Origin: Patescibacteria group bacterium
GTDB lineage: Bacteria > Patescibacteriota > Microgenomatia > UBA8517
Length of the DNA stretch: 64,000 bases
NCBI GenBank assembly: GCA_041742135.1
Contig: JBGSJG010000004.1
Span: 364,758-428,757 of the forward strand
Direction of reading: 5' to 3'
Shown here: positions 16,578-63,738 of the stretch, one piece after another
How positions within the stretch are numbered: the first letter of the stretch is position 1
Layout of the letters: each line of letters begins with the position of its first letter
Made by a program: the position numbers and the translations under genes
Notes under the pieces: model-generated
Told to the model about the DNA's origin: nothing
Database searches by the model: none
Seen by the model: only the letters and a program-made list of their open reading frames with translations

Positions 16578-17166
16578 TGCTTATTGCTAGAATTAATCGT
16601 GTAAGTTGGAGTGTCGAATTTGCGTTTTTGTTAAGTCGACTTAACGCCTCATCGGCTTCAGCGAGAAGTTTTGCGTTTTCAGGGTGGGTAGCCAGATCTT
16701 TGTGGATTTGAGTTATCAAACTTTTGAGAAATGCCACGGCGTCTTCTCTCTTGTTTAGACTTGAGATAATTTTTAATTTTTCACTTTGGTTTGCCTCAAC
16801 AAAGTTGCCTATCAAGCTCGCATCAGGAGTGTCACTACTGTCGTTAAGCCGGATTAGCTGACACCGTGAGGAAATCGTGGGTAAAACGCTCTCTTCGTTT
16901 TTAACATGCAGTACAAAGGAAAGGTTTTTTTGAGGCTCTTCAAGCCTTTTTAAGAATGAGTTTTGAGCTTCAATCGACGCATTTTCAAAATGCTCTAAGA
17001 CGTAGCAAGTTTTTGCAGGAACCGAAGTGTTCGTTATTTTAATAAGCTGCCTAGTGTCGTCGATCTTTTCGATTTTATAAGGCAAAATCCACTTGGCACC
17101 AGTGAGTTCTTGAGCCTTTTGCAACACAGGATCAAAGTCTCGCGACACTACGATAAATGCATGCAT
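16570..17166 (-). CDS. holB: short DNA polymerase III delta-prime-like protein (198 aa)
   Basis: NSFLKRLEEPQKNLSFVLHVKNEESVLPTISSRCQLIRL matches the delta-prime box (NALLKTLEEPP...LPTIxSRCQ). It is much shorter than canonical HolB. Confidence 0.5.
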   Translation of the reverse strand: MHAFIVVSRDFDPVLQKAQELTGAKWILPYKIEKIDDTRQLIKITNTSVPAKTCYVLEHFENASIEAQNSFLKRLEEPQKNLSFVLHVKNEESVLPTISSRCQLIRLNDSSDTPDASLIGNFVEANQSEKLKIISSLNKREDAVAFLKSLITQIHKDLATHPENAKLLAEADEALSRLNKNANSTLQLTRLILAISNA

Positions 17167-18913: not shown

Positions 18914-18927
18914 TACATACTGAAAGC

Positions 18928-19986: not shown

Positions 19987-19995
19987 CTTCAACTT

Positions 19996-21198: not shown

Positions 21199-21240
21199 TA
21201 AGTTGATACTGAAATATATGCGATTGGAGGTGATAACAAT

Positions 21241-21816
21241 ATGACTATTAGAAATAATAAAGGATTTACGCTTGTTGAGCTCTTGATTGTTATCGCCATT
21301 TTGGGCACGCTCGCTGTGGTAGTTCTAATTGCACTTAATCCAGTTCAACAGCTGGCTAGAACTAGAGACGCAGGCCGCCTTTCAACCATTACACAGCTTG
21401 GGCATACAATGCAGGCTTTGGCTACTGGTAGAAATGGTGTCTATCCTACTAACGGTGGAGCAGGCGATTGTGAATATGGAGAAACTTCAGGTGCAGCCTG
21501 GATAGACAACTGTCTGGTGACTGCAGGAGAGCTCAATTCATTGCCGGTGAATCCTTCGTATAGCGCATTGGCGGGCAGTGCATTTCCAGGCTGTGGTGTT
21601 AGCGCTACTGCACAAGGCGACTGGTGTTACAGAAGCACGGCTTCGAGTGCTGCGATTTACACTCGTCCTGAATCAAATAGCAACATAAATATTTGTCCCG
21701 GCGGTAGTACTGCGTGGCTATTGTATTCCACTACTGCGGGTAAAGGTGGTGTTTGGTGTGGTGGTGCCGACCCTGGAGCAGCTATTACAGGAGCTGACAC
21801 AGGTTGGATCGACTAA
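21241..21816 (+). CDS. pilA: type IV pilin, candidate major pilin (prepilin N-terminal methylation motif)
   Basis: NNKGFTLVELLIVIAILGTLAVVVLIAL has Gly at -1, Phe at +1 and Glu at +5. The C-terminus is Cys-containing, and a strong terminator lies immediately downstream. Confidence 0.75.
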   Translation: MTIRNNKGFTLVELLIVIAILGTLAVVVLIALNPVQQLARTRDAGRLSTITQLGHTMQALATGRNGVYPTNGGAGDCEYGETSGAAWIDNCLVTAGELNSLPVNPSYSALAGSAFPGCGVSATAQGDWCYRSTASSAAIYTRPESNSNINICPGGSTAWLLYSTTAGKGGVWCGGADPGAAITGADTGWID

Positions 21817-21829
21817 GGTTCACAGTTTA

Positions 21830-21862
21830 AACGTCCCGATGGAAACACCGGGACGTTTTATT
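21830..21862 (+). terminator. rho-independent terminator after the major pilin gene
   Basis: ACGTCCCG-ATGGAAACAC-CGGGACGT hairpin followed by TTTATTGTTG. Confidence 0.6.
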
Positions 21863-21877
21863 GTTGTAAAATAAGAC

Positions 21878-22276
21878 ATGAAGATAATTAAAATTCTTTT
21901 ACCCTTTTTGCTCCTTACTCCTTTAGTCGTTTTGGGCTATCGGGTTTACGATCCCTCAGAGCGAGCCGAACTCGCCTCAGACCGTGATGCTCAGGGTACA
22001 GTAGGCTATATGGCCCGCACTATTGAAGCAGCAGCATTGGCTGCTCAGCCTGTCCCCTTTCAAGCTGATGAGCTGGGTTGCGCAAAAGTTGATGGCTATT
22101 GTTATGTGGCAAACGACGAAGGTTTTATTGTTTATACCCTCGCCAAGTCTTTAACTTGGAAGGAATACTGTCACCAAAATACTACTTACATTCTTCATTC
22201 CTCGGTTGATAATTTTAATGGCATTGTGTGCGTTGACCCTCCAAAGCCCGGTAAGCAAAAATTTATTAATTCGTAA
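21878..22276 (+). CDS. secreted hypothetical protein (132 aa) with conserved Cys, inside the pilus locus
   Basis: Signal peptide MKIIKILLPFLLLTPLVVLG and Cys residues (GCAKVDGYCY...CHQ...CVDPP). No motif recognised. Confidence 0.4.
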   Translation: MKIIKILLPFLLLTPLVVLGYRVYDPSERAELASDRDAQGTVGYMARTIEAAALAAQPVPFQADELGCAKVDGYCYVANDEGFIVYTLAKSLTWKEYCHQNTTYILHSSVDNFNGIVCVDPPKPGKQKFINS

Positions 22277-22520
22277 GTTGCTCTTCGATTTTGACTATTC
22301 GATCTTCATGGTCCGTTACGCGGTTTACTATGATAACTTTCTCGTCATCATGATCGGATAACTTTTTATATATTCTAGAAGTCACTTCGTAAAACTCCTC
22401 TTTAGTTGGAAGGTGACTGATATCTGCTTTGCGCACAAAATCAACCGACTCCTCTTTGAATATTTGTCGTATCAAATTGCCAAGTGCCTGAAATTGATCT
22501 TCACTGAAGGATTTAATCAT
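22266..22520 (-). CDS. hypothetical small cytoplasmic protein (84 aa), antisense to the pilus operon
   Basis: ORF track entry. It is charged, without a transmembrane segment, and is the only minus-strand ORF between pilA and pilD. Confidence 0.35.
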   Translation of the reverse strand: MIKSFSEDQFQALGNLIRQIFKEESVDFVRKADISHLPTKEEFYEVTSRIYKKLSDHDDEKVIIVNRVTDHEDRIVKIEEQLTN

Positions 22521-22554
22521 GCATGCATGTTAGCACATTTGTTACAATGGACTA

Positions 22555-23334
22555 ATGGAGCTTCTTTTGCTTTTTGTAGCGGGTTCAGTCGCGGGATCTT
22601 TCTTGGGAGCTTTGACTTGGCGAGCTCCAAGAAATATTTCCATAGCTGCGGGAAGGAGCTTTTGCCCTCACTGCAAGCACGCTATCAGGTGGTTCGACAA
22701 CATCCCAATAGTTTCATATATAGTCTTGGGAGGAAAATGCAGGGATTGCAAAGCCGCCATACCTAGGCGAGACTGGTTTATCGAGTTGGCCATTGCGCTT
22801 TCTTTCCCAGTTATTTATTTGGCGCAAAACAGTCTTACTCAAAACATTACTTGGCTTTATGGTGTCAACGGACTGGTCCAGTTAGCAATACTGTTGTTTT
22901 TGCTTCTGTTGTCAGCTGGAATTTTTATAATCGATATTGAGCATCAATATATTCCCGACACTATGGTTTTTGTGATGTTAGCTATTGTGATACTTTCGAT
23001 GCTTGGGTTTTCGAGCCCTCAGCTTTTTGTTCACATCGCCTCCGGCCTTGGCGCAGCTGTTTTTTTACTACTGATTCATCTGGCCACTTTGGGCCGGGGT
23101 ATGGGCCTTGGGGATGTTAAGCTTGTATTGGCATTGGGCATGGTATTGGGTTTTCCTCTGACGGTAGTTTTTATGTTTCTGGCTTTTTCGATAGGTTCAA
23201 TTGTTGGGCTTGTGTTTATTATTTTAGGCAAAGCGAAGCTTAAACAAAAAATCGCTTTTGGCCCTTTTTTGATTCTGGGCTTTTGGCTTGCAGCAATTTA
23301 CGGGAATAACTTTTTGACAATATTTTATATATGA
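22555..23334 (+). CDS. pilD: prepilin peptidase PilD (A24 family)
   Basis: CPHCKHAIRWFDNIPIVSYIVLGGKCRDCKAAIP (N-terminal zinc-binding tetracysteine), multiple transmembrane segments and GLGDVKLVLALG. Confidence 0.8.
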   Translation: MELLLLFVAGSVAGSFLGALTWRAPRNISIAAGRSFCPHCKHAIRWFDNIPIVSYIVLGGKCRDCKAAIPRRDWFIELAIALSFPVIYLAQNSLTQNITWLYGVNGLVQLAILLFLLLLSAGIFIIDIEHQYIPDTMVFVMLAIVILSMLGFSSPQLFVHIASGLGAAVFLLLIHLATLGRGMGLGDVKLVLALGMVLGFPLTVVFMFLAFSIGSIVGLVFIILGKAKLKQKIAFGPFLILGFWLAAIYGNNFLTIFYI

Positions 23335-23885
23335 GGATATTAGGCTTTAAAAAAATAGAATTTATCTGGGTATTTGTGGTTTTGGTAGCAATTGGTTTTG
23401 CTACTTATACTAATTTGCAAATTTCGCTTCGCCGCGGCCGCGATGTTCAGCGAAAAAGTGACATTAAAGTCATCCATGATGCACTACTTTCTTACTTTGT
23501 GGATGAATCCTCTTTCCCTCAAGCCTTTGAAGGCAAAATCGTTGCATGTTTTGGCGGAGTGGATGCACAAGGCATTGCCCAACCTACTGCGTGCGACTGG
23601 TCTCGCGACAGTTTGACAAACATCTGGTCAAACGCGGTTTATCTCCCCCACTTGCCCACAGACCCACACCATAATGATGGCGCACGGTATTACTATATTT
23701 CAAACGGCAGATACTTCCAGCTTTACGCCGCTCTTGAGAGCTCAAGTGAGGCAGAATATGACAAGTCAATTGTCGCCCGCAACATAATGTGCGGAGATCG
23801 GGTGTGCAACTTTGGGCTTGCTTCCTACGGCGCTCCCCTTGATAAATCTATCGAAGAATATGAGAATGAATTAAGGATGAAATGA
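23331..23885 (+). CDS. prepilin-like (pseudopilin) protein
   Basis: LGFKKIEFIWVFVVLVAIG has Gly at -1, Phe at +1 and Glu at +5. It is followed by RRGRDVQRKSDIKVIHDALLSYF, paralogous to the downstream pilins. Confidence 0.5.
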   Translation: MRILGFKKIEFIWVFVVLVAIGFATYTNLQISLRRGRDVQRKSDIKVIHDALLSYFVDESSFPQAFEGKIVACFGGVDAQGIAQPTACDWSRDSLTNIWSNAVYLPHLPTDPHHNDGARYYYISNGRYFQLYAALESSSEAEYDKSIVARNIMCGDRVCNFGLASYGAPLDKSIEEYENELRMK

Positions 23886-24328
23886 AAAAAGGTTTTACAC
23901 TGATTGAACTATTAATTGTTGTCGCAGTTTTGGGTGTTTTGGGATCAATTGTCGTAATCAGTTTTAACGGCTCTCAGGCTTCGGCTCGTGATGCAAGGCG
24001 AGCTTCAGACGTTCGGCAATATGCAGTGGCGCTTGAGTCTTACTCAAACTCTCACAGTGGCAACTACCCCAGTGGAGACTTAACAATTAGTAGCTCAGCC
24101 GTGCTTTGCCCAACTATTAATGTTGGCAATTGTGCACTAGATCCCAAAAACACCTCGCCATATCAATATAGGTACAATTCTAATGGCGCGACTTACGCTC
24201 TTTGGGCGCGCCTTGAGAGAAACGCCGGAGCCACGGCGCAATATTTTGTTCTTTGCTCTGATGGAAAAGTTGGTAAAACTACTAATGATCCAGCCGGTGG
24301 GTGTGGCAGCGTGACAATAATTCCATGA
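23882..24328 (+). CDS. type IV pilin paralog
   Basis: MKKGFTLIELLIVVAVLGVLGSIVVISF and QASARDARRASDVRQYAVALESYSN. ATGA overlap with the upstream gene. Confidence 0.7.
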   Translation: MKKGFTLIELLIVVAVLGVLGSIVVISFNGSQASARDARRASDVRQYAVALESYSNSHSGNYPSGDLTISSSAVLCPTINVGNCALDPKNTSPYQYRYNSNGATYALWARLERNAGATAQYFVLCSDGKVGKTTNDPAGGCGSVTIIP

Positions 24329-24804
24329 GAGTAAACAGATCTGGTTTTACTTTGATCGAACTTTTGGTTGTTATGATAATAATTATGGCACTCGGAACAA
24401 TTGCAGTTATCACATTTACCGGGGCGCAGGCCTCGGCTCGTGACGCTAGGCGTATTTCTGATTTGAAAGAGTACCAAACTGCTTTGGAATTGTACTCAAA
24501 CGGTAATGATTTTTATTATCCAAGGCACCCATCGTGTTCTTCTTTTTTCTGTCTATTAAGCCCTCAGCCATACGATGCTGTGGGTTTATGTAGTCGTTTG
24601 GGGCTAGCTAACTGCGCGCGCGACCCTAAAGTTGCTGATAGCTGGCAGGACTATAAATATATTACGAACGCTTTGCTAGAGCGATATGTTTTGTGGGCGC
24701 GTCTTGAAAAGACTGACGAATATTTTGTGGTATGTTCTAACGGAAAAAGCGGGAAAGAACCTGTCAGTGGTTTTAGTGCATATGCAGCAAATTGCCCAAT
24801 TTAA
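24325..24804 (+). CDS. type IV pilin paralog
   Basis: MRVNRSGFTLIELLVVMIIIMALGTIAVITF and QASARDARRISDLKEYQTALELYSN. The track ORF starts at 24301, but the ATG at 24325 gives an ATGA overlap with the upstream stop. Confidence 0.7.
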   Translation: MRVNRSGFTLIELLVVMIIIMALGTIAVITFTGAQASARDARRISDLKEYQTALELYSNGNDFYYPRHPSCSSFFCLLSPQPYDAVGLCSRLGLANCARDPKVADSWQDYKYITNALLERYVLWARLEKTDEYFVVCSNGKSGKEPVSGFSAYAANCPI

Positions 24805-25238
24805 TGATCAAAAATAAAGGTTTTACACTTATTGAGCTTTTGGTGACAATATCCATAATTGGATTGTTGGCCTCCATTGCCACTTTTGCTCTGACTAATG
24901 CCCAAAAAAGCGCTCGAGATGGAAAGAGAAAGGCGGATTTGGAAAATGTTGCAATCGGGCTTGAGTTGTATCGTTCTGATTGTGGCGCGTATCCAAGCGG
25001 TGTGTCTTTTGGAGGAACTTTGATGGGCAGTGGTTCTTGTAACGGTGTTACTTATATTTCAGACGTTCCAAATGATCCAAAAGCACCTAGAGTTTATAGA
25101 TACTACTCGGTTGCTCCGTTTGTGTCTTACAAGCTCTGTGCCCTGCTCGAAGAGACGCCGGGAACTACTTATAATGTTACAGGGTGCCTCGACTGCGAAA
25201 CTGGTGTAAGTTGCAATTATTCAATTTCTAGGCCATGA
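24804..25238 (+). CDS. type IV pilin paralog
   Basis: MIKNKGFTLIELLVTISIIGLLASIA and QKSARDGKRKADLENVAIGLELY. The track ORF starts at 24792, and the ATG at 24804 gives a TAATG overlap with the upstream stop. Confidence 0.7.
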   Translation: MIKNKGFTLIELLVTISIIGLLASIATFALTNAQKSARDGKRKADLENVAIGLELYRSDCGAYPSGVSFGGTLMGSGSCNGVTYISDVPNDPKAPRVYRYYSVAPFVSYKLCALLEETPGTTYNVTGCLDCETGVSCNYSISRP

Positions 25239-25741
25239 AGAGAGGTTTCTCGCTTATCGAGCTTTTGGTGGTAATTAGCATTATGGGCCTGCTTCTTATT
25301 GGCGGTGTGATTGGTTATCGCGAGTACGCCAGACGACAGGAAACGCAGAATGTAAAACGGCAAATTATTACTGATCTTCGAGAGGCACAGTCTAATGCTT
25401 CAAATGGCTACAAACCGTCAGGATGTGCTGGTACACTTTTGGGTTATGGTTTTGAGGTCACAAGCCCCAGTAGTATCCTCCCCCCCGGAAGTTACGAAGT
25501 TTATGCTGAGTGCGAGACCGGCCCCGGAACTTCGGCACGCTACAACATAATTGAGAGGAATTACAATTCGATATTAGTCACACGTCCTGCCACCAACCCG
25601 ATCATCTTTGAGCCTTTGGATCTTGGTACCAACTTGGGTTCGGCGGTATCGATTAGTGCTGTAAATTTTAACGACTGGCTTGATTTTGGTGATGATTACA
25701 CTTTGACCGTTTCTGTAAGCCCTGTGGGTGAAATAAGATGA
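25235..25741 (+). CDS. type IV pilin paralog
   Basis: MKRGFSLIELLVVISIMGLLLIGGVIGY. ATGA overlap with the upstream gene. Confidence 0.7.
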   Translation: MKRGFSLIELLVVISIMGLLLIGGVIGYREYARRQETQNVKRQIITDLREAQSNASNGYKPSGCAGTLLGYGFEVTSPSSILPPGSYEVYAECETGPGTSARYNIIERNYNSILVTRPATNPIIFEPLDLGTNLGSAVSISAVNFNDWLDFGDDYTLTVSVSPVGEIR

Positions 25742-26178
25742 TAAAAAACACCAAAGGCCAATCAATGTTTGAGCTTTTGGTTGCTGTGTTTGTAGTTGCT
25801 GTGACGTTAGTGGCACTACTTGGGCTTGTGACTGGGGCAATTGGAAACTCAACCTTTGCCGGCGAGAGGACACAAGCTGCGAAATATACTCAGCAAGCAG
25901 TTGAGTGGTTGCGCGCGCAAAGGGATGCTGATTGGGCAGTTTTTTCCGGCCGCGGAAGCGAAGCAGGAACAACATACTGCCTAAATGGGCTGGACTGGAA
26001 CACAGGAGGCTGTAGTAGCGCTGAACTGATTGACGCCAAATTCAAGCGCGAAGTAGTTTTGATTTATGATTCGGCAGCTGAATCAGTAGAAGCCCAGATC
26101 ATTACAAGCTGGAGTGACGCCTCGGGGCTACATGAGTCGAAAGCAACGACTAATTTTACCAATTGGAGGACAAGATGA
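25738..26178 (+). CDS. minor pilin-like protein (PilV/PilW-like)
   Basis: KGQSMFELLVAVFVVAVTLVALLGL, a prepilin-type N-terminus with Glu at +5. ATGA overlap with the upstream gene. Confidence 0.5.
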   Translation: MIKNTKGQSMFELLVAVFVVAVTLVALLGLVTGAIGNSTFAGERTQAAKYTQQAVEWLRAQRDADWAVFSGRGSEAGTTYCLNGLDWNTGGCSSAELIDAKFKREVVLIYDSAAESVEAQIITSWSDASGLHESKATTNFTNWRTR

Positions 26179-26684
26179 AAAAAGGATTCTCGCTTATTGA
26201 GACACTAGTTGTTATCGGGCTTTTTGCGTTAATTGCGACAGTTGTCGCTCGCTCGACCGCATTTAGCTTGTCAGGATCGAGAAAATCTGACACGTCATCA
26301 ATGGTTCGTGAAGAGCTTGAGAACGCTGTTGGAGTTGTTGAGCGGCATTTGCGATCAGCTAAAAGTATAGACGCAACCAGCTGTACAGGCTTGGAGATGT
26401 CGTCAATAAATTACATCGACCAGTCTGGAGCAGCAGCGACCTTTACTTGTGTGGAAGATGGTGACTGTTCGGGCACACCTGATTCGCAAATTGCGTGGAG
26501 TGGTTCAAGGCTCACGAGCCAGCAAAATATCTGTCTTAGGCAGTGCAAGTTTACTTGCACACAGGCCGTCGGCAATCTGCCGCCGACAGTAAAAATTTTG
26601 GTTGAAGGTGTTGCTAAAGGAACAACTGGGGTTGAGGGCTCTGCAATAACAGTCGAAACGAGCGTAACTCTTAGGGCTTATTGA
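26175..26684 (+). CDS. minor pilin-like protein
   Basis: MKKGFSLIETLVVIGLFALIATVVA. The track ORF starts at 26163, and the ATG at 26175 gives an ATGA overlap. Confidence 0.6.
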   Translation: MKKGFSLIETLVVIGLFALIATVVARSTAFSLSGSRKSDTSSMVREELENAVGVVERHLRSAKSIDATSCTGLEMSSINYIDQSGAAATFTCVEDGDCSGTPDSQIAWSGSRLTSQQNICLRQCKFTCTQAVGNLPPTVKILVEGVAKGTTGVEGSAITVETSVTLRAY

Positions 26685-26714
26685 CTGGTGTAAGTAGTCC
26701 CTCTAAACTGAAAC

Positions 26715-27614
26715 ATGGAGTCAACTATGCAAAAAAACAATTCCGGACAGGTTCTTCTTTTGGTTCTTTTGGCTATGGCCGCTGTAGCCACAATGGCGCT
26801 TTCTGTGGTTTCACGGTCTATTACAGGCGTGACAGTTTCCACCCGTGACGAGGAATCTTTAAGGGCCTTTTCTGCTGCTGAAGCAGGGGTTGAACAAGCG
26901 CTTGTTACCGGAACTCAACAAGGTATTATTGATGGTAGTGTGGACCCCATTGTGCAAACTTTCCCCGCCGCGGACGGAACATCGCTCGTAAGTAGTTTCA
27001 CAGCAAACATTGAGCGTTATCCGCCCAATGCCTCTCAGTTTAATTACCCTTTCGAACTTGAAAGCGGTGAATCCGGCTCTGTTTGGCTTGCTACAAAAAG
27101 TGGCAGTGAGGTTTTGGATTGTAGTGGCCCTGGTTCTGGTGAGTGTTTTTCTGGTGCAAGTTTAAATCTTTGTTGGGGAAAGGTAGGATCAGATTTGTCA
27201 GCTGTTATGGTTAATATTTTGTACAAAGACGCTACTGACCAGTATGCTACTCGCCCAGTTGGGTACGATCCAGATCCAAGCCGTAGAAGCACCAATAATT
27301 TTTTGGCTACAGGAAGCGCTACTGCCATAGACATAGATGGTCAGGCTTATGCTGCGTGTGCTAATTTGAATCTCGATGCTCTTATTGGCGCATCGAGTAC
27401 CCCAATTCTCATGCGTGTGACGAGTCTTTATAACACTGTGCCACAAATCTTTGGCGTTAGTGCATCAAGTAACTTACCAATTCAAGGCCGCAAAGTTAGT
27501 TCTACTGGAGTATCAGGAGACTCGAGCCGTAAAATTGATGCATTTTTACTTAACCCTGAAGTACCATTTATTTTTGATGCTGCCGTTTATTCAGAGGGAG
27601 GACTTACAAAATGA
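26715..27614 (+). CDS. PilX-like pilus-associated protein
   Basis: NNSGQVLLLVLLAMAAVATMALSVVSRS...RAFSAAEAGVEQAL resembles the PilX N-terminal domain. Confidence 0.5.
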   Translation: MESTMQKNNSGQVLLLVLLAMAAVATMALSVVSRSITGVTVSTRDEESLRAFSAAEAGVEQALVTGTQQGIIDGSVDPIVQTFPAADGTSLVSSFTANIERYPPNASQFNYPFELESGESGSVWLATKSGSEVLDCSGPGSGECFSGASLNLCWGKVGSDLSAVMVNILYKDATDQYATRPVGYDPDPSRRSTNNFLATGSATAIDIDGQAYAACANLNLDALIGASSTPILMRVTSLYNTVPQIFGVSASSNLPIQGRKVSSTGVSGDSSRKIDAFLLNPEVPFIFDAAVYSEGGLTK

Positions 27615-28630
27615 GTATAGGACTAGACATTGGATCAAAATCAATTAAGGTAGTCGAGCTTGCTCGTGAGGGCAAAGAGTGGGCTCTTCGGTCTGCGGGC
27701 GCCGTGGGATATGCCGGGCCAGTGATTGACGCATCTTTTAGCGATGAAAAAGCGATTGCTGAAATTGCTGGGGTTATTAAAAAATTACTCAAAGACGCAA
27801 GGATCAATGGCCGAGACATTTCAATATCTCTTCCAGAGACTCAGGTTTTTACTCGTGTGATGCAATTTCCCCTTCTGACCGATGCTGAGATTGCCTCGGC
27901 AGTAAAATGGGAAGCTGAGGAATACATTCCAATACCAATCAAGGACGCAATAATTGAGCATCAAGTTATTGAGCGAGTAGAAAACGCAAACCCTCCACAA
28001 GTTTTGGTTTTGTTGGTGGCCGCACTTCGTAGTTTGGTCGAAACCTATGTAAATATTTGTAGTAAAGCTGGCTTAAATGTTGTTGGCGTGGAAACCGAGC
28101 TTGTATCGATGATCCGAAGCTTGGCTCAGCCTGAAAAGGCCGTCTTGATCGTCGATTTTGGAGCTCACTCGACAGACATTGCCATCACTAAAAACGAACA
28201 GCTTTATTTTTCCCGTTCTATCCCCACAGCAGGTGACGCATTTACGCGCGCTGTGGCTCAGTCGCTTGGGGTTACAATCCAGCAGGCAGAAGAATATAAG
28301 CGAACATACGGACTAAGCGAGGATCAACTCGAAGGCAAAGTTGGGCAATCTTTGGAACCAATAATCAAAATGGTGGTAACTGAAATCAAAAAAGCCATCC
28401 ATTACTATCAGCTCAACATCAAAGGAGAAAGCCCAAATTCGATAATTCTTGCTGGGGGCTCCGCTGGGTTGCCCGGTGTTGCACCTATTTTAACAAGTAA
28501 TTTGGGAATAGAAGTAGTTATTGGCTCAGCTTTTGGCAAGGTGAAAGTAGATCCAAACATTGCTAAAAGCTTGGCTAACTATGCTCCCCTTTATGCTGTC
28601 GCGGCAGGTTTAGCTATGAGAGGAGACTAA
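27611..28630 (+). CDS. pilM: type IV pilus assembly protein PilM (actin-like ATPase)
   Basis: MSIGLDIGSKSIKVVEL at the N-terminus. About 340 aa with an ASKHA fold pattern. Confidence 0.8.
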   Translation: MSIGLDIGSKSIKVVELAREGKEWALRSAGAVGYAGPVIDASFSDEKAIAEIAGVIKKLLKDARINGRDISISLPETQVFTRVMQFPLLTDAEIASAVKWEAEEYIPIPIKDAIIEHQVIERVENANPPQVLVLLVAALRSLVETYVNICSKAGLNVVGVETELVSMIRSLAQPEKAVLIVDFGAHSTDIAITKNEQLYFSRSIPTAGDAFTRAVAQSLGVTIQQAEEYKRTYGLSEDQLEGKVGQSLEPIIKMVVTEIKKAIHYYQLNIKGESPNSIILAGGSAGLPGVAPILTSNLGIEVVIGSAFGKVKVDPNIAKSLANYAPLYAVAAGLAMRGD

Positions 28631-33717: not shown

Positions 33718-34881
33718 TTAGACTAATTCTATAAACTTTCGTTTGCCAATTTTTAGTCTTTGCCCAATCTGTGTTTCAAAATTAGCGTCATCGACAGTTT
33801 GTTCATTAACATCCACTGATTTTTGTTTGATGAGTCTTTTAGCCTCTGACATACTTAATTCTAGTGCCCCTGCTACTACTTCCGCAAGTGATTTGCAGTC
33901 AGCTAGTGAAAAACTTTCAAAATCAGGAGTGTGCTCTTGAAAGCTTTTTTTAAAGTGCTCCTTTGCCTTACGCGCGGCCTCAAGGCTATAATGCTCGCCA
34001 ACTATAGCCTCGGCCAAAATTAATTTAAGATCCATCGGATTTTTGCCGCTATCCAACTCTTGTTTGTAAGCTTCAACTTCACCAAGTGGTACCTCGGTGG
34101 CCAGAGTGAAGTACTGGATAATAAGCTCGTCGCGGATCGACATGATTTTGCCAAACATTTCCTCTGGGTTATCTGTAAGCCAGATAGCGTTGCCCCAAGA
34201 TTTACTCATTTTGCGGCCATCGGTACCTGTCAAGTAATCAGTAACGAGCACAAACGAATCTTTGTCAGCTAAATCTTTCAAAAGCGTGCGCCCAGCTTGC
34301 ATATTAAAGGTTTGGTCAGCCGCACCTACCTGAACGTCTGTGTCTAAATGAAATGAGTCATAGCCTTGCATCACGGGATAGAGCGTCTCGTGAAGACCAA
34401 CTGGCTTTTTGTCGCTTAAGCGCTTTTGAATTAGTTCTCGGCCAACAAAATCCCCTACCGAAAAGTGCTGGCAAAGCTTGATAATGTCCTCAAAGCGAAG
34501 GGGGCGAAGCCACTCACTGTTGTGCACCACTTTAACGCTCGAAAAATCCAAAATCTTTTCTGCTTGTTCTTTGTAAGTTTTTAGATTCTCCGCAATCTCA
34601 TCTGGGGTTAACCTTGGCCTCTCAGTATCTTTGTCAGAGGTGTCGCCGATAAGAGCTGTGAAGTCCCCTATTAAAAATGTTACAAAGTGCCCAAGCTCGA
34701 CAAAAGCCTTTAGTTTGCGTAGTGGGACCGCGTGCCCCAAATGGATGCGGGTCGCGGTAGGGTCGATTCCGAAAAAGATATTTAGCTTGTCACCTGAGTT
34801 AAGCCTTTCGATAAGCTTTTCTCGGCTTGGGATAACGTTAACCACACCGCGAGTAACTAAATCCAAAATTTTCTCTTCCAT
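33718..34881 (-). CDS. tyrS: tyrosyl-tRNA synthetase
   Basis: GIDPTATRIHLGHAVPL (HIGH motif), KMSKS and a C-terminal S4-like domain. Confidence 0.9.
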   Translation of the reverse strand: MEEKILDLVTRGVVNVIPSREKLIERLNSGDKLNIFFGIDPTATRIHLGHAVPLRKLKAFVELGHFVTFLIGDFTALIGDTSDKDTERPRLTPDEIAENLKTYKEQAEKILDFSSVKVVHNSEWLRPLRFEDIIKLCQHFSVGDFVGRELIQKRLSDKKPVGLHETLYPVMQGYDSFHLDTDVQVGAADQTFNMQAGRTLLKDLADKDSFVLVTDYLTGTDGRKMSKSWGNAIWLTDNPEEMFGKIMSIRDELIIQYFTLATEVPLGEVEAYKQELDSGKNPMDLKLILAEAIVGEHYSLEAARKAKEHFKKSFQEHTPDFESFSLADCKSLAEVVAGALELSMSEAKRLIKQKSVDVNEQTVDDANFETQIGQRLKIGKRKFIELV

Positions 34882-42287: not shown

Positions 42288-44039
42288 CTAGTCAAGTTCT
42301 TTTTCCTCAATTTCCTTTTTAATATATCCAATGAAAGTTTCAATTGAAAACGGTCCGTCTGCCTTCCCACTTCGGTGTCGCTCGGTTACGGTTTGATCTT
42401 TTTCTTCTTGATCTCCCAAAATTAACATGTATGGTACTTTTTCTGCTTGTGTGTCCCGAATTTTGGCTCCCAGTGTTTCGCTTCGCTCGTCAATCTCAAC
42501 TCTAATGCTATTCTCACGCAGTGTGTCAGCTACACTTTTTGCATATGCTAAGTTCCGATCGGTAATAGGTAGAATCTTGACCTGAACTGGCGAGAGCCAG
42601 ACTGGAAAAGCCCCTGCAAAGTGCTCAATTAAAATTCCGATAAACCTTTCAATTGATCCATAAATCACTCTGTGAACTACAACAGGGGTTTTCTCTATAC
42701 CATCCTTGTCGGTGTATTTGAGCTTAAATCTTGCTGGTTGCTGAAAATCGAGCTGTATTGTGCCCATTTGCCAATCGCGTCCTAGCGAATCTCTCATTAC
42801 GATGTCGATTTTTGGTCCGTAAAAGGCACCGTCCTTTTCGGCTACTAGGTAGTTGCCTTCCCCCACCGTATCATTTAGAATCTTTCGCAAACTGCTTTCT
42901 GCTTTGTTCCAAGTGTCGATATCGCCCAAGAAGCCATCGGGTCGCGTCCCCAGTCTTAATTTATATTGAAGCCCAAAGATGCCGTAAAAAAGCTCCGCGA
43001 TGTCTAGAATGTTTTTATATTCTTCTTCTATCTGATCTTCGGTAACAAAGTTGTGAGAATCATCTTGCCTAAATGAACGCACGCGAAGAAGTCCGTTTAA
43101 AGTTCCAGACATTTCATAACGATGAAGGACATCGCTATCTGAAAATCTTAGTGGCAGATCTCTATAACTTCTGTTTTTGCTTCCGAAAATAATCATCGCA
43201 TTTGGGCAATTCATTGCCTTAATGCCATATACTTCATTTTTTCCCATGTCAGCGATAAACATGTCGTTTTTATAGTGTTCCCAGTGTCCAGAAGTCTCCC
43301 ACAGTTCTTTCTTGTTAATTATTGGCGTAGCTGTTTCATGGTATCCGCGTTTGGCATGCTCTACTCTCCAAAATTCAAGCAAAGTATTTAACAGAATCAT
43401 TCCTTTTGGTAGCCAGTAAGGGCTTCCAGGGGAAGTTTCATGAAACATAAAAAGATCTAATTGCGGACCCAATTTTTTGTGGTCTCTTTTTTTGGCTTCT
43501 TCTAGCATATTCATATGGTCATCCAATTCTTGTTTTGTTGGGAATACTGTGCCGTAAATGCGCGTAAGCATGGTATTTTTCTCATCTCCCCTCCAATATG
43601 CTCCTGCGATGGACAATAACTTGAAGTGCTTAAGCTCGTCATCTGGGTGCATAACGTGCCCTCCGCGGCAGAGGTCCCAATAGTCTCCTGATTTGTAGAA
43701 AGTTAAAACTTCTCCCTTGCCTGCAAACTCGTCGATAAGCTCGTGCTTATAATTATTTCCGGGATATTCTTTTTTGGCGTCTTCGGCGGATAATTCGTGG
43801 CGTTCAAAACCTTTCCAGCTTTTAAGAATTTGGCGCATCGTATCCTCAATTTTGGGCAAATCTTCATCGGATATTTTGGTGTTACCAAAGTCAAAGTCAA
43901 AGTAAAAGCCATTATCGATTGCTGGGCCTATCGTGCGCTTCGCCCCTGGCCATAACTCCATTACAGCGGCCGCTAATAAATGCGCCGTTGAATGGCGAAG
44001 ATTGTCTAAGTATTCTTTTGATTTTTTGTCCGTACTCAT
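42288..44039 (-). CDS. thrS: threonyl-tRNA synthetase (lacks N-terminal TGS domain)
   Basis: HSTAHLLAAAVMELWPGAKRTIGPAIDNGFYFDFDF (N2 editing domain) with class II catalytic and anticodon-binding domains. The track ORF starts at 44108, but the ATG at 44039 (MSTDKKSKEYLDNLRH) fits ThrRS N-termini and leaves room for a leader. Confidence 0.85.
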   Translation of the reverse strand: MSTDKKSKEYLDNLRHSTAHLLAAAVMELWPGAKRTIGPAIDNGFYFDFDFGNTKISDEDLPKIEDTMRQILKSWKGFERHELSAEDAKKEYPGNNYKHELIDEFAGKGEVLTFYKSGDYWDLCRGGHVMHPDDELKHFKLLSIAGAYWRGDEKNTMLTRIYGTVFPTKQELDDHMNMLEEAKKRDHKKLGPQLDLFMFHETSPGSPYWLPKGMILLNTLLEFWRVEHAKRGYHETATPIINKKELWETSGHWEHYKNDMFIADMGKNEVYGIKAMNCPNAMIIFGSKNRSYRDLPLRFSDSDVLHRYEMSGTLNGLLRVRSFRQDDSHNFVTEDQIEEEYKNILDIAELFYGIFGLQYKLRLGTRPDGFLGDIDTWNKAESSLRKILNDTVGEGNYLVAEKDGAFYGPKIDIVMRDSLGRDWQMGTIQLDFQQPARFKLKYTDKDGIEKTPVVVHRVIYGSIERFIGILIEHFAGAFPVWLSPVQVKILPITDRNLAYAKSVADTLRENSIRVEIDERSETLGAKIRDTQAEKVPYMLILGDQEEKDQTVTERHRSGKADGPFSIETFIGYIKKEIEEKELD

Positions 44040-44181
44040 AAGTAATAATACCCTTATGAGAGGACGATTTGAAGAGCTCGCGATGAGCTTGTCGAATCGT
44101 GGTTCCACCCCCCTTAATTCTCTTTGATTCGTACGTGAATCACTCGTTTGCTCCCCAGTTGGTGAGTCTGGATCAAAGCTA
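44040..44181 (-). promoter_or_regulatory. putative ultrashort T-box leader (threonine specifier ACC) upstream of thrS
   Basis: Minus-strand leader carries a short hairpin CCAG-ACUCACCAA-CUGG with ACC followed by A in the loop, nested in a CUUUGAU/AUCAAAG stem. It also has AAUUAAGGGGGGUGGAACCACG, matching the T-box core AGGGUGGNACCGCG with the UGGNACC bulge, followed by the hairpin AGCUCAUCGCGAGCU. Confidence 0.4.
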
Positions 44182-44186
44182 TGTTT

Positions 44187-44214
44187 ATTATACAGCCGTA
44201 ATGTGAATTATCAA
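44187..44214 (-). promoter_or_regulatory. sigma70-like promoter for thrS leader (TTGATA, 16-nt spacer, TATAAT)
   Basis: Minus-strand reading: CTTGTCTTGATAATTCACATTACGGCTGTATAATAAACA. Confidence 0.45.
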
Positions 44215-44220
44215 GACAAG

Positions 44221-44568
44221 TTATGCGTCTGGGGGATCCCCTGCAGGACCGCCATCGGCCGTTTTAATTCCAACGATAACATCTTTTACTCCAGCCTCGC
44301 TTAATTTAGAAATAAGCGATTCTCTTGCCTCGTGAGATGTATCAAGAGGCAAATTGATAAACATTGGGGCATCTGGCATTCCTTCTTCGACTTTGTCGTT
44401 TTCGTAAACTACATTTTCGTAAGCGATTCCTGCTTCTTCAAGAATTATTGGCAACCCATGTTCCATATTTGGAATCATTACATTTCTAGCTACAAGGCTT
44501 TTTGGATCATTGACGTACTCATCAAGTTGTCTTCTTAATTCAAGGTAGTGTGCGGGTTCTTCTGGCAT
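44221..44568 (-). CDS. hypothetical protein (115 aa)
   Basis: ORF track entry. Acidic, with no motif. Confidence 0.35.
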   Translation of the reverse strand: MPEEPAHYLELRRQLDEYVNDPKSLVARNVMIPNMEHGLPIILEEAGIAYENVVYENDKVEEGMPDAPMFINLPLDTSHEARESLISKLSEAGVKDVIVGIKTADGGPAGDPPDA

Positions 44569-44600
44569 TTGTAAATTTTAACAGATCAACGAGGGAAATT

Positions 44601-44858
44601 CTACCTTCCTAAGGCATCTAGTGTAGCCTCCACTATAGAAGCAATCGCTGAGCCGATTATTGGTAACGTCTCAGCTTGTGATAATACAAAAACCAACACT
44701 GTAGTTACAATCGCAAAGCCAATGGACACTCCAATGGACCAGAAGATTCCTTTAACCATCCCCTCTTTTGCATAAGTCCAAAATTCTTTTTTGGTCATAC
44801 TTAATTCTAGACGATTTAGCTCCTCAGTGCCATAATCGGATGGAAGTAACTTGTGCAT
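44601..44858 (-). CDS. hypothetical small membrane protein (85 aa)
   Basis: ORF track entry with two transmembrane helices. Confidence 0.3.
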   Translation of the reverse strand: MHKLLPSDYGTEELNRLELSMTKKEFWTYAKEGMVKGIFWSIGVSIGFAIVTTVLVFVLSQAETLPIIGSAIASIVEATLDALGR

Positions 44859-44860
44859 AT

Positions 44861-45349
44861 ATGACAGAGACTCGAGATGATTCAGTAGAAATGCCTTTCC
44901 GCGACGCTATTCGCGCCGGGGTAGACATTTTTAAAGATGGAGATTTAGTGAAATTTGTAAGAATCGGCAGGATTGAAGCTGAACGTATGGCTTTACGCCA
45001 AGGTAAAAAATTGCCTGATGACTTGCCGGAAGGAGATATTATTCTTTTTGGTGATCAAAAAGCGTTTCATAAGGAAATTTTGGGATCCAATATTGGAATT
45101 AGACTTGAACACCCCGACGTGGTCCGTAGTATTAAATGTAAAGATGCTGGTTATTTAGTGAAACGACCAGACGGTTGTAAGGTATTTGCAACATCAGGCG
45201 AATTGGGTTTGGGTGAAGGCGGCGATTTTGCTTCTATGGCCAAAGAGGAGCGATACGCATTGCATGAACAAACAGCGCAAGTGCTTGAAAGAATATTTGA
45301 AGATACGGGCAAAGCGCAAAGTTTTAGTGCATTACACGATAAATTTTAA
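44861..45349 (+). CDS. hypothetical protein (162 aa from the ATG at 44861)
   Basis: The track ORF (TTG start at 44768) overlaps the convergent gene. The internal ATG at 44861 (MTETRDDSVEMPF) removes the overlap. Confidence 0.35.
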   Translation: MTETRDDSVEMPFRDAIRAGVDIFKDGDLVKFVRIGRIEAERMALRQGKKLPDDLPEGDIILFGDQKAFHKEILGSNIGIRLEHPDVVRSIKCKDAGYLVKRPDGCKVFATSGELGLGEGGDFASMAKEERYALHEQTAQVLERIFEDTGKAQSFSALHDKF

Positions 45350-61620: not shown

Positions 61621-61673
61621 AGGCAGAACAGTGAGCTTACGTGAAGATATTCTTACAATCAAGAAGGTAATTG

Positions 61674-61745
61674 TGATCCCGGGAGGGCTCGAACCTCCAA
61701 CCATTGCCTTAAGAGGGCACTGCTCTACCATTGAGCTACGGGACC
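61674..61745 (-). tRNA. tRNA-Lys (anticodon CTT)
   Basis: Manual fold: GGTCCCG acceptor pairing with CGGGATC, D-arm GCTC-AATGGTA-GAGC, anticodon loop CTCTTAA and T-arm GGAGG-TTCGAGC-CCTCC. Confidence 0.75.
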
Positions 61746-61750
61746 GCGAG

Positions 61751-61823
61751 TGACCCAGGAAGGACTCGAACCTTCAACCTAACGGTTAGAAACCGTTTGC
61801 TCTATCCATTGAGCTACTGGGCC
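61751..61823 (-). tRNA. tRNA-Arg (anticodon TCT)
   Basis: Manual fold: GGCCCAG acceptor pairing with CTGGGTC, anticodon stem AACGG/CCGTT with loop TTTCTAA, and T-arm GAAGG-TTCGAGT-CCTTC. Confidence 0.85.
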
Positions 61824-61857
61824 GTAATCGACCAGTTGCCAAGGGACAAGCTTGCCT

Positions 61858-61878
61858 TATCCATTGAGCTACTGGGCC
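61858..61878 (-). repeat. 21-nt perfect duplicate of the tRNA-Arg 5' end (acceptor stem plus D-arm); truncated pseudo-tRNA or repeat
   Basis: TATCCATTGAGCTACTGGGCC occurs at 61803-61823 and again at 61858-61878. No complete tRNA could be folded from the second copy. Confidence 0.5.
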
Positions 61879-61959
61879 TTATTTTAGCCTAAAACTGTTA
61901 TATTTTACATTCTTTGCCCATAAAATGAAAATCATGACAAAAAAGCCTATACTGAAATT

Positions 61960-62430
61960 GTGATTAGATTTTTAAAATTACTAGCTTCGGTTGCTGTTTG
62001 CCAAGCGACAGGGCTTCTGTCGACCCCATTTACGATTTCAGCAATTCCCACTTGGTATGCCTTTTTGAATAAGCCTTTTTTTGCACCTCCAAATTGGATT
62101 TTTGCTCCCGCCTGGACGATCCTTTACACCTTAATGGGAATTTCGCTATATATAATTTGGTCCAAAGGAATAAAAAAGAGGAAGGTAAAGCAGGCATTAG
62201 GGTTTTTCTTTGTGCAGCTAGGCTTAAATTTTTTGTGGTCCTATGTGTTTTTTGGACTGAAGTCGCCTGAATTGGCCTTATTAAATATTGCAGCAATGTG
62301 GGTGTTTATATTAATGACGCTTGTGAAATTTAGGCCGATTTCAAAACTCGCATTTTATCTTCTGATCCCTTACTTCCTGTGGGTGAGCTTTGCCTCACTT
62401 CTAAATGCTTCAATCGCCATTCTTAATTGA
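61960..62430 (+). CDS. tspO: TspO/MBR family tryptophan-rich sensory protein
   Basis: WYAFLNKPFFAPPNWIFAPAWTILYTLMGISLYIIW and five transmembrane helices with conserved Trp residues. Confidence 0.75.
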   Translation: MIRFLKLLASVAVCQATGLLSTPFTISAIPTWYAFLNKPFFAPPNWIFAPAWTILYTLMGISLYIIWSKGIKKRKVKQALGFFFVQLGLNFLWSYVFFGLKSPELALLNIAAMWVFILMTLVKFRPISKLAFYLLIPYFLWVSFASLLNASIAILN

Positions 62431-62652
62431 CATATTTTCAATGAATCCCCACGGGCTATGCCGCACAACATCATCTTTTCTGATCCCTAGCTGTCTAAAT
62501 TGATTGTAAGGGACGAATACTTGCGTTGGAGATAATGTTCCAAGTTCTTCTAGTTCAAGTTTTATAGCCCGGCCATTCCGGCAAAGATACATGGCTTCAA
62601 CTGTGGAGTATTTTCTCTGAAATATATAATCCGCCAAACGCTCTCGATTCAT
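62410..62652 (-). CDS. hypothetical small protein (80 aa)
   Basis: ORF track entry with no motif. Confidence 0.3.
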   Translation of the reverse strand: MNRERLADYIFQRKYSTVEAMYLCRNGRAIKLELEELGTLSPTQVFVPYNQFRQLGIRKDDVVRHSPWGFIENMSIKNGD

Positions 62653-62673
62653 GTTTTAACTGAGCAGGCTATG

Positions 62674-62745
62674 AGCGGGAGACGAGATTCGAACTCGCGA
62701 CCTCTTCCTTGGCAAGGAAGCGTACTACCACTGTACTACTCCCGC
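62674..62745 (-). tRNA. tRNA-Gly (anticodon GCC)
   Basis: Manual fold: GCGGGAG acceptor pairing with CTCCCGC, D-stem GTAC/GTAC, anticodon stem CTTCC/GGAAG with loop TTGCCAA, T-arm GCGAG-TTCGAAT-CTCGT and discriminator U. Confidence 0.85.
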
Positions 62746-62809
62746 CTACGCACTTCGTGCTTCGGCGGGCAGGCCCGCTTTGGGTCTACCGCCTCGCATC
62801 GGCGAAGGC

Positions 62810-62885
62810 TGGTGCTGGGAGCAGGGATCGAACCCGCATCTGACGCTCTTCAGGCGCCCGCCGTGACCAACTTGGCTATCCCAGC
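62810..62885 (-). tRNA. tRNA-Phe (anticodon GAA), CCA encoded
   Basis: Manual fold: GCTGGGA acceptor pairing with TCCCAGC, anticodon stem GGCGC/GCGTC with loop CTGAAGA, T-arm GCGGG-TTCGATC-CCTGC and an encoded ACCA 3' end. Confidence 0.85.
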
Positions 62886-62907
62886 GCGAACAAAGTGAGC
62901 GATGGAA

Positions 62908-62971
62908 CAACGTTCTTGCGTAGCAAGGTTGCTTACTGCGCTAGCAGCAACGTTCTTGCGAAGCAAGGTTG
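62908..62971. repeat. two tandem ~24-nt repeats (40-nt period), each containing the palindrome CTTGC-GNA-GCAAG
   Basis: CAACGTTCTTGCGTAGCAAGGTTG at 62908-62931 and CAACGTTCTTGCGAAGCAAGGTTG at 62948-62971. They lie upstream (5' on the minus strand) of tRNA-Phe. Confidence 0.5.
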
Positions 62972-63030
62972 TTATCCCAGCATTCAATACTTGGTGTATT
63001 CTACCAGTTTTTTGTTATCTAAAAAAGTCT

Positions 63031-63624
63031 TTAGTAATTTGTGGGGGTTTCTGCTTGCGGTTGCTCGGCTACAGGAGGCATTTGAGCTAAAGTATCATTG
63101 AAAGACGTAGGCTGGTTTTGAGCTAGAGGTGGGTTTTGCACAGGAGCTGCAAACGGTGTGTAGGCTTGTGTTTGAGGTTGTTGTACTGCCATGGGCTGGC
63201 TAACAATCGGCTGTTGGGGTTGTAGCTGTACGACTGGAGCTTGAGGTTGAATGATGGTTGGCGCTTGAGGTTGCACATAAGTCGGCTGCGGTGCACTTGG
63301 GGTAACCGCGGAAGAAGGCATCTTTGGCTTAACCACCGCACCTTCAAAATATTTTGTAAGCTGCAATAAAATAAAGCCTGTCACTCCGTAGACGATCATC
63401 CCAAGAACTGTTGCAAGCTCCAAAGAAAAACTGGCAACCGTGAAAGTAGGAAAAACTCCTTGAAATGGAAATACCAAAGGATCTGTGGCTCCGTAAACCC
63501 AATTGCTAAATTGTGCCGTACTACTGGCGGCCAAAAGCATGAAGATAAACCTAAAACCTAGAAGTACTTCAACCAGACCGATAAAAAATAGAATTATTCC
63601 TGATGCAACTTTTCCAATATCCAT
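63031..63624 (-). CDS. membrane protein with Gln/Pro-rich C-terminal tail
   Basis: The start was moved to the ATG at 63624 (MDIGKVASGIILFFIGLVEVLLGF) because the track start at 63723 lies inside tRNA-Val. Three transmembrane segments, then a QPQAPTIIQPQAPVVQLQPQQP low-complexity tail. Confidence 0.45.
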   Translation of the reverse strand: MDIGKVASGIILFFIGLVEVLLGFRFIFMLLAASSTAQFSNWVYGATDPLVFPFQGVFPTFTVASFSLELATVLGMIVYGVTGFILLQLTKYFEGAVVKPKMPSSAVTPSAPQPTYVQPQAPTIIQPQAPVVQLQPQQPIVSQPMAVQQPQTQAYTPFAAPVQNPPLAQNQPTSFNDTLAQMPPVAEQPQAETPTNY

Positions 63625-63664
63625 GTATTTACAATAGCAATTGTGATGAGCAAAAACAACAGTG

Positions 63665-63738
63665 TGGTCGCACAAGGACTCGAACCTTGGACCTTTCGGA
63701 TGTAAACCGAACGCTCTAACCAACTGAGCTATGCGACC
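63665..63738 (-). tRNA. tRNA-Val (anticodon TAC)
   Basis: Manual fold: GGTCGCA acceptor pairing with TGCGACC, D-arm GCTC-AGTTGGTTA-GAGC, anticodon stem TTCGG/CCGAA with loop TTTACAT, and T-arm CAAGG-TTCGAGT-CCTTG. Confidence 0.85.

Follow-up and report, generated by a model that had tools for sequence, protein, structure and literature searches.

Introduction

The T-box leaders of Bacillus subtilis thrS and thrZ are about 220-300 nucleotides (nt) long, and have a long Stem I, a Stem II, a pseudoknot and a terminator. Translational T-boxes with an "ultrashort" Stem I are described for ileS of Mycobacterium and Nocardia (Sherwood et al. 2015, as cited in PMC7583486 and PMC11297988). It is held that at least one of two accessory modules, the platform at the distal end of Stem I that binds the tRNA elbow or Stem II with its pseudoknot, is needed for stable binding of tRNA (PMC11297988, PMC7583486). 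The elbow platform is missing from accepted translational T-boxes (PMC7583486), and the absence of Stem II and of the IIA/B pseudoknot is reported only for glycine T-boxes, which keep the long Stem I (PMC11297988, PMC7583486). Here we discuss the leader of thrS, the gene for threonyl-tRNA synthetase (ThrRS), in a 64-kb stretch of contig JBGSJG010000004.1 of a Patescibacteria group bacterium (the whole stretch is referred to as the window). From its sequence we think it very probable that this leader is a minimal threonine-specific T-box through which translation initiation of thrS is controlled, probably together with the rest of the operon thrS-infC-rpmI-rplT-pheST.

Conservation of the thrS leader

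The loci used for comparison came from ThrRS-guided scans, which gave 160 loci with a best identity of 66%, mostly from Patescibacteria with some from Chloroflexi and a few from other lineages, and from a protein search for closer relatives, whose contigs were inspected. The loci are numbered from L001 onward. The same short leader is present upstream of thrS in L163 (77% ThrRS identity) and in L165, L166, L167 and L169 (66-68%), and when these five close relatives are taken together with about 25 distant ones, most of them from the Candidate Phyla Radiation (CPR) and some from Chloroflexi, it is found in about 30 of the 168 loci examined. Within the 160 loci of the scans the sequence TGGAACC lies upstream of thrS and is flanked by the A1 and A2 helices in about 24.

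Taken as a whole, the RNA element goes far beyond what chance would give. A covariance model built from 15 relatives with the window left out (model R2) gave a single match on the two strands of the window (128 kb), at 44056-44180 on the minus strand, with 72.7 bits and E = 4.8e-15. Across all loci the R2 matches sit upstream of thrS with five exceptions, and every match of the short type does so. Two of the exceptions are the full-length T-boxes of L167 and L153, and a third, in L085, lies between rplT and pheS and has the bulge UGGUACC and an overlapping terminator. The fourth is a doubtful weak match at 2114-2181 of L001, apparently within coding sequence, and the fifth is a weak match in L134 that is just upstream of thrS and leaves the pattern unbroken. 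Another model, R1, was made from six close sequences (the window and the five relatives) with our own annotation of the structure. It matches thrS leaders outside its seed, most of them CPR, with E from 1e-8 to 1e-3, including those of L057 (52 bits), L058 (43 bits), L087 and L026 (34 bits each), L098, L059, L119 and L019.

The helices are supported by compensatory change. In alignment A3 (24 sequences) 93% of the cells are paired, and in alignment A4 (16 sequences) 92%, against 38-50% in both for slid partners (the paired percentages being somewhat inflated by the fitting discussed below); double changes are seen in 22 of 23 and 21 of 23 pairs respectively, and none of 500 shuffles reaches these values in either alignment. 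Nearly all pairs of A1 and A2 covary, and in Stem III double changes affect all seven of the seven pairs in A3 and A4, with UGUUAG:CUAACA in L163, GCUCG:CGGGC in L166, UUGAUUU:AAAUCAA in L169 and UGGUCC:GGACCA in L167. The stem that carries the specifier is CCAG:CUGG in the window, and becomes CCGG[loop ACUCACCGA]CCGG in L163, CUGG:CCAG in L169, UUUGG:CCAAA in L167 and CCCAG[..]CUGaGG in L165 and L166.

All of the specifier loops share ACC and no other triplet, the overlapping CCA being lost in L163 (ACCG); the base 3' of ACC is A, or G in L163. Distant members have a 7-nt loop, CUACCAA in L026, L087, L098 and L119 or CUACCAC in L067. CUACCAA has the pyrimidine-U-NNN-A-A pattern of an anticodon loop (positions 32-38), here carrying a codon. 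ACC is a threonine codon and the gene downstream is that for ThrRS. A generic test for any hairpin presenting ACC was too permissive, with 29% of shuffles passing, and is not used as evidence.

Organisation of the leader

The 181-nt gap between an open reading frame (ORF) of 115 amino acids (aa), with its stop at 44221, and thrS holds the promoter and the leader on the minus strand, and by inspection of 44214-44040 the promoter, specifier hairpin, Stem III hairpin and T-box core follow each other in that order (Table 1). thrS comes first in the gene order, followed by infC, rpmI, rplT, pheS and pheT.

Table 1. Position of the promoter, leader elements and thrS in the window
Feature	Positions	Strand	Description
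-35 hexamer TTGATA	44209..44214	-	equivalent -35 position occupied in L163, L165, L166, L167 and L169
-10 hexamer TATAAT	44187..44192	-	16-nt spacer to the -35; promoter with 11/12 matches
Ultrashort Stem I	44150..44179	-	helix P2 U-CCAG:CUGG-G and 9-nt terminal specifier loop ACUCACCAA
Specifier codon ACC (Thr), then conserved purine A44160	44161..44163	-	ACC invariant among the short thrS leaders found
Stem III hairpin UGAUUC[ACGUAC]GAAUCA	44125..44142	-	RF00230 Stem III alignment; compensatory changes in relatives
Purine-rich linker AAGAGAAUUAA into RAG/T-box sequence	44114..44124	-	AGAG...AAG kept in alignments
Discriminator (antisequestrator)	44058..44113	-	A1, 7-nt bulge and A2; helices 92-97% paired in alignments
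A1 helix	44113-44108 with 44063-44058	-	GGGGGG with CCUCUC; T-box core
T-box bulge UGGAACC, 7 nt	44101..44107	-	matches UGGNACC
A2 helix	44100-44095 with 44069-44064	-	ACGAUU with AAUCGU; carries 25-nt inserted hairpin 44094-44070
Sequestrator hairpin CUCAUAAG:CUUAUGAG	44035..44060 (44060-44053 with 44042-44035)	-	minimum free energy structure; buries AUG
thrS coding sequence, 583 aa (MSTDKK...)	42288..44039	-	ATG 44039-44037; homologues start at the equivalent Met

A sequence-only reading of this stretch had proposed a threonine T-box here, and it holds up well. It claimed a near-consensus promoter, TTGATA-16-TATAAT, which is present at 44214-44187, and a leader of about 140 nt, for which we count about 141 nt from the predicted transcription start at about 44180 to the ATG. 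Its compact stem-loop with ACC followed by A is the hairpin with the loop ACUCACCAA, and its antiterminator core with a UGGNACC bulge is found with UGGAACC between A1 and A2. One check that it proposed, conservation of the ACC loop and of UGGNACC in orthologous thrS leaders, came out in its favour, with covarying A1 and A2 in addition, and the threonine T-box itself is upheld by that conservation, the covariation and the R2 match. It had also favoured translational over transcriptional control, in keeping with the lack of a terminator and with the conserved hairpin, described below, that is formed by the 3' strand of A1 and the start codon.

The promoter match taken alone is not beyond chance, as the window holds three sites with at least 11/12 matches where shuffles lead one to expect 2.0. 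A TTGACA-17-GATAAT promoter is at the same place in five of the five close relatives (L163, L165, L166, L167 and L169).

The specifier hairpin is CCAG[loop ACUCACCAA]CUGG (44171-44155, minus strand). The base of Stem I in the window may be K-turn-like (GC / UUU / G-A opposite G-A / GC), with a C-stem of about 2-3 base pairs (bp) that falls at the predicted 5' end; the tandem G-A/G-A and the 3-nt bulge are kept, and in L169 and L163 there is a clear consensus K-turn, with C-stem, 3-nt bulge and tandem G-A/A-G. Stem I terminates in the specifier loop, and a long Stem I with the distal interdigitated T-loop platform is absent. From P2 to Stem III there are only about 12 nt (GGAGCAAACGAG), with 12-17 nt in relatives, and part of this spacer closes the base of Stem I. 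The leader has no Stem II, S-turn or IIA/B pseudoknot because the gap between Stem I and Stem III is so short.

Directly 3' of the Stem III hairpin and 5' of A1 is AAGAGAAUUAAG, the RAG linker, to which we assign the role given in PMC11297988, and the T-box core sequence is AAUUAAGGGGGGUGGAACCACG (44119-44098, minus strand). Insertions in A2, such as the one here, are typical of translational T-boxes (PMC7583486). The core features of a T-box are therefore all found in this leader, and in their canonical order: a specifier with its purine, A1 and A2 on either side of UGGNACC, Stem III with a RAG linker, and a sequestrator that is mutually exclusive with A1.

Two other candidate structures were rejected. 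A 7-bp helix of CUUUGAU (44178-44172) with AUCAAAG (44128-44122) would bring the 5' end of the leader together with the 3' strand of Stem III as the base of a three-way junction, but is not conserved in L163, L165, L166 and L169 and competes with the covarying Stem III hairpin. This complementarity may be due to chance or be an alternative fold specific to the window. A second possible T-box at 34721-34732 on the plus strand is a 12-mer, AGTGGGACCGCG, that has one mismatch to the T-box motif; it falls within the coding region of tyrS, on the opposite strand, and is a chance match. The 76-nt gap upstream of tyrS has no leader element.

There is a difficulty in the annotation of thrS itself. The NCBI protein P0001 (606 aa), which is identical to the ThrRS of the window, begins at GTG 44108, inside the T-box. 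This GTG consists of the last G of helix A1 and the UG of the T-box bulge, and the 23 extra residues are translated riboswitch. It is likely that the 606-aa start is mis-annotated, and we suggest that ATG 44039 be taken as the start.

Expression platform and proposed mechanism

No intrinsic terminator was found in 43500-45000. The leader has no small ORF initiated by ATG, and attenuation by a leader peptide is rejected for the window. In its place there is a hairpin that involves the start codon. CUCAUAAG begins within the 3' strand of A1 and runs five bases beyond it, and CUUAUGAG contains the AUG, so that the sequestrator and helix A1 share a strand and are mutually exclusive. Equivalent hairpins that occlude the AUG are formed by CUCAUAG:CUAUGAG in L165 and L169, by CUCAUGG:CUAUGAG in L166 and by CGUCUUC:GAAGACG in L163. 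In L163 the A1 helix is AUAGAAG:CUUCUAU, so that in this relative the strand common to A1 and the sequestrator has changed in step with the two strands that it pairs with.

The local fold of the window leader has a free energy of -33.0 kcal/mol in the OFF state, which is the minimum, and of -28.3 kcal/mol in the ON state with A1 enforced, which makes OFF the default state by about 5 kcal/mol. In the ensemble of structures the AUG is paired for the most part. Since no conserved Shine-Dalgarno (SD) sequence is visible, we infer that it is the start codon that is sequestered, and control in the window is most likely translational by this means.

We propose the following mechanism. A sigma-70-type promoter would start the transcript about 8 nt ahead of the short Stem I, and the terminal loop of Stem I would offer ACC, with the purine after it, to tRNA-Thr(GGU) for pairing with the anticodon. 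The UGGA of the bulge, following Stem III and the purine linker, would pair with the free (U)CCA 3' end of uncharged tRNA-Thr and so stabilise helix A1 (GGGGGG:CCUCUC), for which this pairing, stacking and the contact with the anticodon would together need to supply about 5 kcal/mol. Without uncharged tRNA the CCUCUC strand and AUAAG would pair with CUUAUGAG, the start codon would be buried and expression would be off by default. Charged tRNA would be unable to stabilise A1, and synthesis of ThrRS would then rise only when charging of tRNA-Thr falls.

The tRNA-Thr side

The bulge has UGGA in 27 thrS leaders and UGGG in one (L163). UGGA predicts U73 as the discriminator base of tRNA-Thr, and UGGG also predicts U73 by way of a G-U pair. 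There are eight tRNA genes in the window and none is for tRNA-Thr. Five of them, for Lys-CTT, Arg-TCT, Gly-GCC, Phe-GAA and Val-TAC, are at 61673-63738 on the minus strand toward the edge of the window, and the cluster may run on past 64000, where a tRNA-Thr gene could lie.

The 170 loci include two tRNA-Thr genes, of which the only one from CPR, in L056, ends in ...CATCGGC-T-CCA and has U73, the other being alphaproteobacterial (L054) and having A73. The relationship of bulge and discriminator base holds in the lineage, as the UGGU bulge of the full-length T-box of L167 adjoins a tRNA-Tyr gene with A73. As far as it goes, then, the comparison with the discriminator base that the sequence-only reading had proposed is consistent with a sensor of tRNA-Thr.

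Points against a functional T-box and alternative explanations

Several observations weigh against our interpretation. With RF00230, for which the gathering cut-off is 93, the window gives only 9.8 bits (E = 5.6), over model positions 159-216. Both of the modules referred to above are missing, as Stem I has no distal part to bind the elbow and there is neither a Stem II nor a IIA/B pseudoknot. In a fold of 167 nt there is little difference between ON (-41.9 kcal/mol) and OFF (-41.1 kcal/mol), the ON value leaning on doubtful long-range pairs. No recognisable, conserved SD sequence was seen, which leaves occlusion of the AUG as the sole read-out. The match of the bulge to U73 is a prediction for the genome of the window. 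Finally, the fitting of alignments A3 and A4 to the model raises their paired percentages to some extent, the margin over slid partners still being large.

The Rfam result needs some comment, as a significant Infernal match to RF00230 was another check proposed in the sequence-only reading and it was not obtained, there being no T-box at the gathering level anywhere in the 64-kb window. That reading was to be given up only if the Infernal match and the conservation in orthologous leaders both failed, and the conservation is strong. The partial alignment places Stem III and A1, bulge and A2 correctly. The short thrS leaders among L001, L002, L015, L026, L035, L041, L057, L058 and L080 are also below the gathering score, with those of L163, L165 and L167 there is no match at E<=0.01, and even the full-length T-boxes of relatives reach only 92.8 bits (L167) and 85.8 bits (L153). 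The low score is thus weak evidence against a T-box in this lineage, because short and full-length T-boxes of the relatives fail too; the gathering score is a curatorial criterion and not a mechanistic one.

The absence of both accessory modules raises the question of whether the leader is a degenerate relic of a T-box, with no productive tRNA binding, that now serves as a constitutive structured 5' untranslated region, and in the ileS T-box of Mycobacterium tuberculosis deletion of Stem II or the pseudoknot does abolish binding (PMC11297988, PMC10651847). However a relic would not be expected to keep ACC, UGGA and four covarying helices across mostly CPR loci with ThrRS 50-77% identical, nor would A1 be expected to co-evolve with the start-codon region as in L163, or the sensor to be re-joined to terminators in sibling lineages (L167, L087). 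We consider a relic improbable.

It is also very unlikely that the same sensor acts in the window through an output other than translation, such as Rho-dependent termination, decay of untranslated mRNA or weak intrinsic termination. The lack of a clear SD sequence would be in accord with this, as would the transcription terminators of L167 and many other relatives, but 43500-45000 has no terminator-like site, and the alternative helix pairs specifically with the AUG, as it does in four relatives.

An operator of the Escherichia coli type, in which a hairpin mimics the anticodon arm of tRNA-Thr and the synthetase represses its own translation, would account for the gene, for translational control and for a loop of 7 to 9 nt on a short stem resembling an anticodon arm. 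We regard it as highly implausible, as the loop carries the codon ACC and no threonine anticodon (GGU, UGU or CGU), and the conserved UGGAACC bulge between A1 and A2 would be left without explanation. A chance resemblance of AT-rich intergenic sequence to T-box motifs, for which one could cite the Rfam score at noise level, the promoter match that is not significant alone and the one-mismatch 12-mer within tyrS at 34721, is effectively refuted by the single R2 match in the window and by conservation and covariation in orthologous leaders.

Other regulatory elements in relatives and in the window

The short sensor of our thrS leader is joined to other outputs in some of the relatives. In L167 the same sensor leads into a canonical overlapping terminator, CCGUCUUUU...AAGAGACGG with U7 after it. 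A second arrangement, which we call nested, is seen in L002 (about 9806-9860), L058 (about 1920-1975), L083 (about 530-585), L105 (about 2850-2915), L138 (about 1784-1845) and L035 (about 6224-6295). Here the helix next to the U-tract (CCACCUU...AAGGUGG and then U7 in one case) encloses A1, bulge and A2 and does not overlap the 3' strand. This topology is not explained by canonical competition of antiterminator and terminator; one possible model is that Stem III stacks on A1 in a tRNA-dependent manner and so keeps the outer helix from forming.

We suggest tentatively, while leaning slightly against it, that these leaders form an undescribed class of minimal T-boxes of about 125 nt. Such a class would contact tRNA-Thr only through a hairpin like an anticodon stem-loop and a discriminator domain, having neither the elbow platform nor Stem II with the pseudoknot, would occur mostly upstream of CPR thrS genes with some in Chloroflexi, and would have three outputs: sequestration of the AUG, canonical terminators, and nested terminators that enclose the antiterminator.

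Some loci with similar ThrRS have no T-box upstream of thrS. In L164 (1129-1235, identical in L170 at about 2688-2795), which belongs to a sister lineage whose ThrRS is 70% identical and whose gene order is the same, there is a small ORF, MHKIFVTTTTTFLFCEE*, with five consecutive threonine codons, that overlaps a hairpin ACAACUACUACUUUCCUC..GAGGAGUAGUUGU and is followed by a terminator AACCUCCUCACAAGGAGGUUUUUUU; GAGGAG can pair alternatively with CCUCCUC. From its sequence the L164/L170 leader looks like a classical leader-peptide attenuator of thrS. In L168 (68% ThrRS identity) a gene for a Y1-type transposase (625-1410) is directly upstream of thrS, and here the leader was apparently either lost or replaced.

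Full-length T-boxes are also present in this group. L167 has one at 19674-19957, upstream of the tRNA-Tyr(A73) gene and tyrS, with the bulge UGGUACA; L153 has one at 4989-5265, upstream of an ORF resembling 3-deoxy-D-arabinoheptulosonate 7-phosphate (DAHP) synthase, also with UGGUACA; and the one in L085 is at about 6200-6440. All three loci were assigned to CPR by ThrRS similarity and shared gene order. Those of L167 and L153 would go unannotated because both are just below the 93-bit gathering score.

Elsewhere in the window there is a type IV pilus cluster resembling a type II secretion system (T2SS), at 17165-28630 on the plus strand, with two T2SSE ATPases, T2SSF, PilM, a prepilin with an N-methylation motif and an A24 prepilin peptidase. 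The cluster, and a DUF5665 gene near thrS, fit a Patescibacteria genome.

Comparison with known systems

To find a T-box in a CPR-like genome was thought noteworthy in the sequence-only reading, and it is so in that no T-box linked to Patescibacteria or CPR was met in the literature searched, which is not proof of novelty; such T-boxes are not rare in the genomes themselves. The class II model of TBDB was searched only in Actinobacteria. The literature searched likewise has no description of a short Stem I with terminators, as in the sibling loci, or of an absence of both elbow platform and Stem II with IIA/B for threonine or any other non-glycine codon.

The E. coli thrS operator resembles our leader in that initiation of thrS translation is controlled through structured RNA by the start site, but there the effector is ThrRS acting on anticodon-arm mimics, while the window has a codon loop and a T-box bulge. 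The B. subtilis thrS and thrZ leaders, of the RF00230 type, share with it the gene, the logic of a threonine-codon specifier and the T-box sequence, but are full-length, while the element in the window has about 125 nt and a score of 9.8 bits with that model. The glyQS glycine T-boxes of Firmicutes also lack Stem II and IIA/B and have the order Stem I, linker, Stem III and antiterminator; they differ in the long Stem I with its elbow-docking platform, the all-G:C pairing of codon and anticodon, and an output by transcription termination.

Also close in architecture are the actinobacterial ileS T-boxes, for which our comparison is drawn from reviews and later primary papers. As described there, they too lack the elbow-binding distal motif and carry the specifier close to the apical loop, there over a K-turn and in the window over a base that may be K-turn-like. 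They also share a sequestrator and antisequestrator as output, an insertion in A2, and the core of Stem III, RAG, A1, UGGNACC and A2. In those accounts they depend on a Stem II of about 70 nt with an S-turn and on the IIA/B pseudoknot, where the window has only about 12 nt. The window leader further differs in that the specifier is for threonine and not isoleucine, that the AUG and not a clear SD sequence is sequestered, that the phylum is CPR, and that siblings of this leader join the short Stem I to transcription terminators.

If functional, the leader would have the smallest architecture that we know of among natural T-boxes for tRNAs other than that for glycine. It would extend tRNA-sensing riboswitches to Patescibacteria, for which native regulatory parts are wanted as genetic tools (PMC11665869), and with regard to annotation it is clear that Rfam-based searches miss the short class and narrowly miss full-length CPR T-boxes (92.8 against 93). 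The published view is that the elbow platform or Stem II with the pseudoknot is needed for stable capture of tRNA, and that transcriptional T-boxes need a long Stem I. The family discussed here is a direct test case for that view, because it seems to be without both modules and occurs in translational and transcriptional versions.

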